UHGV virus genome: UHGV-0017337
DNA length: 43,119 bases
From: a virus
Strand: one strand, 5' to 3'
In this document: positions 24,583 through 24,715 of the stretch, in pieces
How the letters are laid out: each line of letters begins with the position of its first letter
Numbering within the stretch: position 1 is the stretch's first letter
The notes under the pieces: model-generated
What the model saw: only the letters and a program-made list of their open reading frames with translations
The model's database searches: none
What the model was told of the DNA's origin: nothing
Position numbers and translations under genes: made by a program

Positions 24583-24668
24583 TAATACACGTTCTGTATT
24601 AGCTGCAACTCAAAATCATGAAACCTATGTAAAACCATGTGTAGCTAATACAGAACGTGTATTAGCTG
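24583..24668. promoter_or_regulatory. Pair of inverted 19-23-bp imperfect palindromes (TAATACACGTTCTGTATTAGCTG / TAGCTAATACAGAACGTGTATTAGCTG), operator-like, just upstream of early promoter copy 2
   Basis: Second element is the reverse complement of the first; AGCTAATACA motif also recurs in 41950-42420. Confidence 0.45.
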
Positions 24669-24673
24669 TATCT

Positions 24674-24715
24674 TTAAAATAATTCTTGACGAATTACACC
24701 AACGCAACTATCTTG
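24674..24715 (+). promoter_or_regulatory. Conserved early promoter element copy 2 (-35 TTGACG, 17 bp, -10 TATCTT)
   Basis: TTTAAAATAATTCTTGACGAATTACAC...; followed by AAGGAG RBS. Confidence 0.55.

Follow-up and report, generated by a model that had tools for sequence, protein, structure and literature searches.

Among described systems, those closest to a pair of palindromic sites (A and B, together at 24582-24667) that we analysed in the virus genome UHGV-0017337 (43,119 nucleotides, the whole of which is hereafter called the window) are the Cro/C1 (XRE) regulators such as lambda and 434 Cro and CI, P2 C, C.Csp231I and Aca2/Aca7, the lambda O/ori-lambda system with the lambdoid O/gene-18 family, the P4 ori/crr pair with its alpha primase-helicase, and the KorB OB operators of IncP plasmids. 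In the window, A and B stand directly upstream of a promoter at what we call the head locus, and a larger array of related sites lies at a second locus between the small terminase gene (terS) and a gene at 42496, whose product, akin to 9NA gp84 and here called the gp84-like protein, is our candidate binder.

With the Cro/C1 regulators the window shares 19-21-bp dyads with conserved arms and a free centre, in pairs or arrays; a small predicted helix-turn-helix (HTH) domain, for which these regulators provide the nearest folds to the structural model; sites that overlap the regulator's own putative promoter, suggesting autoregulation; and, as in immunity regions, exchange of the putative DNA-binding domain and its sites together as a cassette. 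It differs in that the gp84-like protein has no detectable sequence homology to this family and carries a large conserved C-terminal domain (duplicated in Klebsiella phages), in that the window phage is virulent and a second, remote locus would be targeted, and in that B and A are located at about -66 and -129, upstream of an UP-like element and not over the -35/-10. The likeness to lambda O consists of several ~19-bp dyads next to an AT-rich stretch and of a putative, type-specific N-terminal DNA-binding domain that covaries with the sites in three lineages and is followed by a flexible linker and a conserved C-terminal domain. Unlike in lambda, the sites of the window are in an intergenic control region and not inside the initiator gene, one of the two loci has two sites only, and there is no Phage_rep_O similarity. 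As in P4 ori/crr, two separated loci share short repeats, and 9NA gp74 is a P4-family primase; however, P4 iterons are direct octamers whereas the window sites are dyads, and the primase cannot set specificity because it is 87-99% conserved across lineages with different motifs. KorB-type ParB proteins act from palindromes at a distance from promoters, and their OB operators resemble the window sites: identical palindromes recur at several promoters, and some of them exert their effect from an upstream or remote position. Membership of the KorB/OB system is nevertheless rejected because the ParB-like protein of the phage does not covary with the sites. A and B most likely belong to a conventional phage regulator (or replication-initiator) circuit, an arrangement that is conventional in kind, be it regulator/operator or initiator/iteron.

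The window represents a 9NA/Sasha-like virulent siphophage. Its nearest record is Sashavirus BDX09P1 (94.7% identity), further relatives are the E. coli phages PJ16, PDP46, Bas82, AVIO78A and 536P12, and 9NA matches at about 70%. Although the group includes therapeutic-candidate phages of E. coli, Salmonella and Klebsiella, its biology is termed poorly known in the BASEL paper (PMC11990801). The accessible literature holds almost nothing on gene regulation and replication control in the group, and no description of its regulation was found in this literature, the coverage of which does not extend to the main 2019 paper on the group.

Two perfect dyads upstream of a promoter

The head locus separates a minus-strand block of head genes (gp37/gp38 homologues, scaffold, major capsid) from a short rightward block of small genes. 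The features at issue, A and B having been found by sequence reading and a repeat finder, are as follows.

24582..24602: site A, CTAATACA-CGTTC-TGTATTAG, perfect 8+8 dyad, centre 24592 (about -129)
24603..24642: spacer between A and B, contains AAAATCATGAAACCTATG, 96% conserved among 12 window-type genomes (alignment)
24643..24667: site B in its extended form, AGCTAATACA-GAACG-TGTATTAGCT, perfect 10+10 dyad, centre 24655 (about -66)
24645..24665: site B, CTAATACA-GAACG-TGTATTAG, 8+8 arms
24673..24714, plus strand: sigma70-type promoter with UP-like TTTAAAATAATTC, -35 TTGACG (24686-24691), 17-bp spacer and -10 TATCTT (24709-24714)

An identical 21-bp dyad, CTAATACA-N5-TGTATTAG, is thus present perfectly twice, 63 bp from centre to centre, although a preliminary description of the locus had called each site an imperfect palindrome. 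Because the centres CGTTC and GAACG are reverse complements, A and B jointly form a 26-nt inverted repeat (24582-24607 / 24640-24665) that is 96% complementary with 32 nt between its arms; this bears out the paired inverted arrangement reported earlier, where the spacer had been put at 36 bp by that description's own coordinates. The extended site B stops at 24667 and the repeated promoter unit TTTAAAATAATTCTTGAC (the UP-like/-35 block) begins at 24673, so the distance of 6 bp given before was right within 1 bp. Site B adjoins the UP-like block without overlapping the -35 or the -10, and the positions of the two centres relative to the promoter take the start to be near 24721.

Within the window, the dyad CTAATACAN5TGTATTAG with at most three mismatches was matched five times against 0.21 expected, a count that none of 100 shuffles reached. 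The half-site AGCTAATACA with at most one mismatch was matched 15 times against 2.4 expected (shuffle maximum 6), and six copies are exact: 24595 (-), 24643, 24658 (-), 41957, 42122 and 42352. The last three coincide with the recurrences at ~41958, 42121 and 42352 that had been noticed in the second locus. Similarly, all eight matches to the array consensus TAATGCA-N5-TGCATTA (at most two mismatches) in the 43-kb window fall within the two loci. Both A and B have the make-up of dyad sites, i.e., a length of about 14-21 bp, conserved half-sites and a tolerant centre, and comparison with relatives (below) indicates that they are specific protein-binding sites.

Palindromes of this kind could instead function as nucleic-acid structure, namely an RNA hairpin or terminator, a long hairpin of A with B, or a DNA cruciform. 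Each site can indeed be folded as RNA at -6.6 to -14 kcal/mol (z of -2.05 and -3.83 on the plus strand, -2.54 and -4.24 on the minus strand), and the whole A..B hairpin reaches -44 kcal/mol (z = -11.6). However, divergent promoters flank the region, which is upstream of each of them and is probably not transcribed; it has no T-tract and no terminator call, and its Rfam matches are miRNA-like only and far below the gathering score. The long A:B pairing is broken in those relatives whose centres have the same orientation, and the Klebsiella-type site A and many sites of the array are poor palindromes in which the half-site sequence is kept. We therefore regard a structural role as very unlikely.

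Conservation and covariation of the sites across lineages

The window-type set comprised 12 genomes (six GenBank records and five IMG/VR contigs), and across it the two sites are retained, 63 bp apart and at an unchanged distance from the promoter. The arms of site A are 98-99% conserved with a centre of 77%, and those of site B 92-97% with a centre of 65%. The central 5 bp read CGTTC, GAACG, GATTC or CATTC in all combinations of orientation, including both GAACG and both CGTTC. The mirror-image relation of A and B, which the preliminary description had emphasized, is consequently incidental, since the two dyads are conserved and their mutual inversion is not. Conserved dyads with an unconstrained centre are the usual signature of a dimeric HTH operator. 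As an observation in its own right, the dyad centre is inverted between near-identical genomes, as CGTTC/GAACG in the window type (24590-24594, 24653-24657) and as GTT/AAC in the Klebsiella type, which looks like recurrent quasi-palindrome spacer inversion, possibly via template switching.

Comparison with more distant lineages was more telling about the reader of the sites. In 9NA, both orthologous positions upstream of the same promoter carry TAACA-CACCG-TGTTA, and a search of its genome for TAACA-N5-TGTTA (at most one mismatch) gave 13 matches against about 3 expected, of which two are at the head locus and seven in the terS/gp84 intergenic region; a 9NA-variant IMG/VR contig has the same arrangement. 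The element AAAATCATGAAACCTATG of the spacer is kept in 9NA too, as AAAATCATGCAATCTATG. In Klebsiella phage KP13-27 and two IMG/VR contigs, both positions have CTTACCA-type sites (e.g., CTTACCA-GTT-TGGTAAG, the centre being flipped to AAC in one contig), and in these three genomes this motif is also arrayed at terS/gp84. The window-type motif is not enriched in the 9NA or KP13-27 genomes, nor are their motifs enriched in the window. The sites at both loci have thus changed in parallel in three independent lineages, and therefore a phage-encoded reader with lineage-specific specificity is indicated. In every lineage, the centre of site B is 25-33 bp from the -35 and the site abuts the conserved UP-like element. 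For the recovery of further genomes from IMG/VR, scans with conserved proteins were more useful than a scan with the module pattern, which gave mostly window-type genomes.

Some further sequences of these lineages are worth recording. A conserved GTTWCAG flank, common to all motif types, was set aside because its enrichment is clear in 9NA only (12 copies where 3.9 are expected), the window having 4 where 3.2 are expected. At position 1061 of 9NA, a single exact TAACA-TTCTT-TGTTA lies inside gp2, about 130 bp beyond the end of terS, and is a possible third target or a chance match. In the distant relative IMGVR_UViG_3300036785_000282 (gp37 homologue 72% identical), the promoter family described below is absent from the head locus, which is instead rich in GTTTCAC / GTGTCAC repeats and has three dyads of the form ATACCG-N3-CGGTAT that may represent a fourth type of site.

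The gp84-like protein as the candidate reader

On balance, we favour the view that A and B are read by the N-terminal domain of the gp84-like protein, which would bind the terS/gp84 array as well, and that the protein would down-modulate the promoter, regulate its own gene and control terS. The gene is located as follows.

42496..43119, plus strand: gp84-like candidate binder (9NA gp84 / Sasha gp81, phrog_25538), truncated at the end of the window

In this protein, a variable N-terminal region of ~60 amino acids is joined to a conserved C-terminal domain through a linker that contains 21-bp tandem repeats (43051-43119). The type of N-domain agrees with the type of motif in the window, 9NA and Klebsiella groups. 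The N-domain of BDX09P1 is 42% identical to that of the window, with a C-domain that is nearly identical, and its N-domain and the gene-proximal repeats (now CTAYSAYAGGATTA) have been replaced together as one cassette. The swap spans 42265-42700 of the window, i.e., the gene-proximal repeats and the first ~75 codons, beyond which the gene is unchanged, as are the sites near terS. Salmonella phage FSL SP-062 has a stand-alone ORF of 69 amino acids with a 9NA-type N-domain directly upstream of a full-length Klebsiella-type gp84-like gene, and the DNA upstream of these genes carries both motif types. The AlphaFold2 model of the window's N-domain is a helical bundle (predicted local distance difference test, pLDDT, of 86), whose nearest folds are almost all Cro/C1/XRE HTH proteins: Aca7 (TM 0.69, rmsd 1.0), Aca2, P2 C, DdrO, Xfaso Cro, CylR2 and C.Csp231I. 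The domain accordingly models as a Cro/C1-type HTH fold; the full-length model is poor outside it (pLDDT 63).

In-frame perfect tandem repeats are not confined to the linker, where a 21-bp unit is present 3.3 times (43051-43119, VEAPVAR). Another 21-bp unit is repeated 3.3 times in the gene for a 139-amino-acid protein (24071-24140, VEPVTTA) and a 30-bp unit 2.6 times at the window start (1-77). Their copy number varies among relatives in the alignment, and the Sasha record annotates a 'direct tandem repeat region'.

Several observations count against the gp84-like protein as the reader or against the regulatory role proposed for it. The N-domain of Sasha is 100% identical to that of the window, and Sasha has window-type sites at terS/gp81, yet at its head locus there are two sites of the Klebsiella/SP-062-like kind, ATAACCAGATATGTA and CTTACCAGATATGTA, 70 bp apart. 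Conversely, the window-type sites of BDX09P1 are intact both at the head locus and next to terS, although its N-domain is the swapped one. The half-sites of the head locus are all TACA and those of the array mostly GCA. The protein has no relative in Pfam, NCBIfam or the PDB by sequence or profile, and no characterised homologue; the fold-search E-values for the N-domain exceed 1, the domain being too small for significance. The whole intergenic region is about 95% conserved in the shallow window-type group, the arms not being above their flanks, and therefore the 12-genome comparison by itself is no proof of selection on the arms. A and B are upstream of the UP-like element and not over the core promoter. 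Finally, the A-B spacing varies between 60 and 70 bp across lineages and is not phase-locked; strict helical phasing is therefore not conserved, and a looping or occlusion mechanism is not forced by the geometry.

The simplest reading of the discordance in Sasha and BDX09P1 is recent mosaic exchange that left non-cognate 'orphan' sites, and if so, regulation at the head locus would be dispensable. As for the difference between TACA and GCA, hybrid TACA/GCA sites occur within the array (42124, 42354) and suggest one specificity class. The earlier proposal of one regulator at both loci is supported in that the same type of recognition sequence recurs at 41957-42445, and is qualified in that two mosaic genomes break the correspondence between protein and sites.

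Other candidate readers

The discordant genomes could also mean that the head-locus palindromes are read by another phage protein, whose specificity usually, though not in every case, goes together with the type of the gp84-like N-domain; the likeness of A and B to the terS/gp84 array, TACA against GCA half-sites, would then be a partial one. Such a protein would agree with the finding that, in all 12 relatives, each of the four half-sites at the head locus has the same A-for-G difference. Against it are the three concordant independent lineages, the hybrid sites of the array, which argue for a single specificity class, and a genome-wide covariation screen of ORFs, in which no other protein was present in all lineages, variable and fitting the pattern of the sites. 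The best-fitting variable ORFs of that screen (29733-30092 and 33695-34030) have no DNA-binding signature in Pfam/PHROG beyond a weak zinc-ribbon match. The existence of such a reader appears improbable to us.

Individual candidates were rejected on similar grounds. The preliminary description had named the HTH protein at 42496, a small HTH protein (NinH) and a Rha-like protein as possible regulators; the variable N-domain of the first tracks the motif type, while for the other two no homologue was detected in some lineages that bear sites. NinH (27379-27573) is without a detectable homologue in KP13-27, which still has sites, and this speaks against it as the other reader. The Rha/anti-repressor-like gene for 182 amino acids (24819-25367) is found in BDX09P1 with no match in Sasha, 9NA or KP13-27. 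The 139-amino-acid DUF723-like repeat gene (23948-24367) has its own promoter copy, and 9NA, Sasha and KP13-27 lack it at this place. TerS (about 90% identical, with a near-invariant N-terminus, in four lineages with three head-locus motifs), the ParB-like protein (identity of 99.6% for PJ16, Sasha and BDX09P1, falling to 90% for 9NA and 69% for KP13-27) and a 91-amino-acid protein (25532-25807; the only gene common to all lineages downstream of the promoter, very similar in four lineages and without covariation) were excluded because they are conserved while the motif changes.

The same comparison bears on a further possibility, that the palindromes are recognised by the small terminase as pac sites or by the ParB-like protein as parS/OB-like sites. 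The main array is directly upstream of terS, and the ParB-like gene (Sasha gp77 / 9NA gp81) is near the window end, about 1-2 kb beyond it. However, the DNA-binding regions of TerS and of the ParB-like protein are nearly invariant where the palindromes are entirely different, the HTH stretch of the latter being near-identical across the compared lineages, and a role as pac or parS sites is the least probable of the alternatives considered here.

The site array at terS and the AT-rich module

The intergenic region of 610 bp between terS and the gene at 42496 contains at least eight degenerate sites of the form TAATRCA-N5-TGYAYTA, and the half-site of A and B recurs within this array (41957-42445). 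The features of the second locus, together with the AT-rich module that it shares with the head locus, are listed below.

41249..41884, minus strand: small terminase gene (terS), context
41959..41979: array site 1, CTAATACA-ATGTT-AGTATTAA, overlaps a promoter-like match
41988..42008: array site 2, TTAATGCA-CAACA-TGCACTAA
42124..42144: array site 3, CTAATACA-CTATA-TGCACTAT, hybrid TACA/GCA half-sites
42277..42444: dense array, at least five further sites TAATRCA-N5-TGYAYTA (cores 42278, 42299, 42355, 42386, 42425)
24478..24568: AT-rich module, copy 1, 78% A+T, with TCTATG repeats and A-tracts, immediately left of site A
42174..42264: AT-rich module, copy 2, 75% A+T

Array site 1 overlaps a promoter-like match ahead of terS (TTAATA-18-TAAAAT, 41979..41950, minus strand). 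At the other end, there is overlap between the right half of the final site (42437-42443) and a weak -35-like TTGCAC (42436-42441), which is followed by 17 bp and TATGAT (42459-42464) before the HTH gene; this weak promoter was read by eye and is under the threshold of the promoter scan. Autoregulation and control of terS are consistent with the array because its sites overlap promoter-like elements of both terS and the HTH gene.

The 91-bp AT-rich module is present in two copies that are 92% identical, each beside dyad sites, in a window that averages 57% A+T. Its core, CTATAAAAAGATAATAAAAAGAATAAGATAG, is kept at both loci in 9NA and Sasha, and more loosely in the Klebsiella phages, whatever the dyad type; candidate roles are an unwinding element, a bend or a late-promoter region. 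Eight of the 13 copies of TCTATG in the window are in the two loci (24480, 24563, 24571, 42073 (-), 42176, 42185, 42259 and 42328 (-)). Moreover, because ATCTATR repeats are conserved at both loci in all lineages irrespective of the dyad type, they suggest a second conserved DNA-binding factor, of the phage or of the host.

This module gives substance to a reading in which the sites are origin iterons and not operators. The gp84-like protein would then be a lambda-O-like initiator whose conserved C-terminal domain recruits the conserved replisome, 41957-42445 would be the origin, and the head locus a second or auxiliary element comparable to P4 ori/crr. The binder is the same as in the operator reading, and the two differ only in the effect of binding. 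At least five closely spaced dyads near an AT-rich stretch make up the classic lambda-ori layout, and the duplication of a 91-bp module of 75-78% A+T beside the sites of both loci, with its core in all lineages, would fit an origin; the adjacent AT-rich region expected of an iteron origin is found at the head locus as well (24478-24568). A variable N-domain joined to a conserved C-domain by a repetitive linker is likewise compatible with an initiator, and in 9NA and Sasha the gp84-like gene ends the helicase/primase/polymerase cluster. On the other hand, 24582-24667 has two sites only, which is under the three repeats expected of an iteron origin (the second locus, with at least eight, is above), and the gp84-like protein is without similarity to Phage_rep_O or any initiator family. 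Because the GC skew reflects the orientation of the genes, it adds no independent evidence of an origin. Site B is directly upstream of the UP-like block of the same promoter in every lineage, which points to a transcriptional role. Nor is the head-locus copy an essential origin, because Sasha and BDX09P1 are viable with non-cognate sites there. We consider an origin function of the sites unlikely, though less so than an alternative reader.

A regulatory model and the repeated promoter family

In the operator reading that we favour, A and B would be dyad sites (half-site YTARTACA, with an uncontacted 5-bp centre) for a lineage-specific, phage-encoded, dimeric DNA-binding protein. We take this most likely to be the gp84-like protein (phrog_25538) acting through its exchangeable N-terminal Cro/C1-type HTH domain, which would also recognise the related sites (TAATRCA-N5-TGYAYTA, at least eight) that separate the gp84-like gene from terS. 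Bound at about -66 and -129 of the promoter at 24686-24714, the protein would place its proximal dimer directly against the UP-like element. The most likely effect would be down-modulation of one copy of an otherwise constitutive, strong early-promoter family, with the contact between alpha-CTD and UP blocked, to which the distal dimer might contribute. The role of the protein at the second locus would be autoregulation together with control of terS. We infer the identity of the binder, its binding as a dimer and the direction of the effect; repression is favoured over activation because the promoter, with its full UP/-35 consensus, looks as strong as the eight copies that have no sites.

The promoter family itself is extensive. 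The 15-mer AAAATAATTCTTGAC (UP-like block and -35) has nine exact copies in the window, of which one is on the minus strand and the other eight are on the plus strand. All nine continue into a GATTRCA-rich spacer and a -10 that varies.

14485, 24676, 28537, 29679, 32775, 36429, 38105 and 40694, plus strand: copies of AAAATAATTCTTGAC
24385..24371, minus strand: copy of AAAATAATTCTTGAC
24343..24388, minus strand: divergent promoter copy containing AAAATAATTCTTGAC at 24385..24371, -10 TACCCT, drives the DUF723-like gene 23948-24367

The block is conserved in 9NA and in KP13-27 (12 copies at up to two mismatches). As a side observation, the family heads blocks of small genes that are interleaved with virion genes of the opposite strand. 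The minus-strand promoter copy at 24343..24388 is absent in 9NA, Sasha and KP13-27. The DUF723-like gene 23948-24367 looks like a mobile insertion that brought this copy with it, because the gene is absent at that position in the same three phages. It shares a repeated DUF723-like domain of ~55 amino acids (FIxxAxxxHGDRYDYS) with the plus-strand genes 14747-15499 and 31913-32788, and each of the three is accompanied by a copy of the promoter family. Downstream of the promoter at A and B, the gene content differs among the relatives that infect E. coli. The first frame after this rightward promoter is a hydrophobic ORF of 25 codons (MIYYILAFMIFAAPVIVGIVRG, 24746-24823, plus strand), which has AAGGAGA ahead of it and overlaps the start of the anti-repressor-like gene for 182 amino acids.

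Significance for the 9NA/Sasha-like phages

The comparison links the orphan family phrog_25538 to a defined DNA motif and gives it a putative, testable role in DNA binding. It also defines three or four types of recognition sequence with cognate N-domains, and a composite cis element that occurs twice per genome. A bolder proposal, to which we give only a small chance, is that the gp84-like protein and the cassette of N-domain and site array constitute a new specificity module that ties together control of terS and the late operon, its own synthesis and one early promoter. Such a module would work through the two copies of the composite element (AT-rich module with dyads), which might also be a bipartite origin. 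If this is true, the mosaic genomes of Sasha and BDX09P1 carry orphan or cross-wired sites, and the module would amount to an incompatibility system, similar to that of immunity regions, in phages without lysogeny. Confirmation of the operator reading would provide a set of orthogonal small HTH/operator pairs and would account for the selective control of a single copy within a family of repeated strong promoters.

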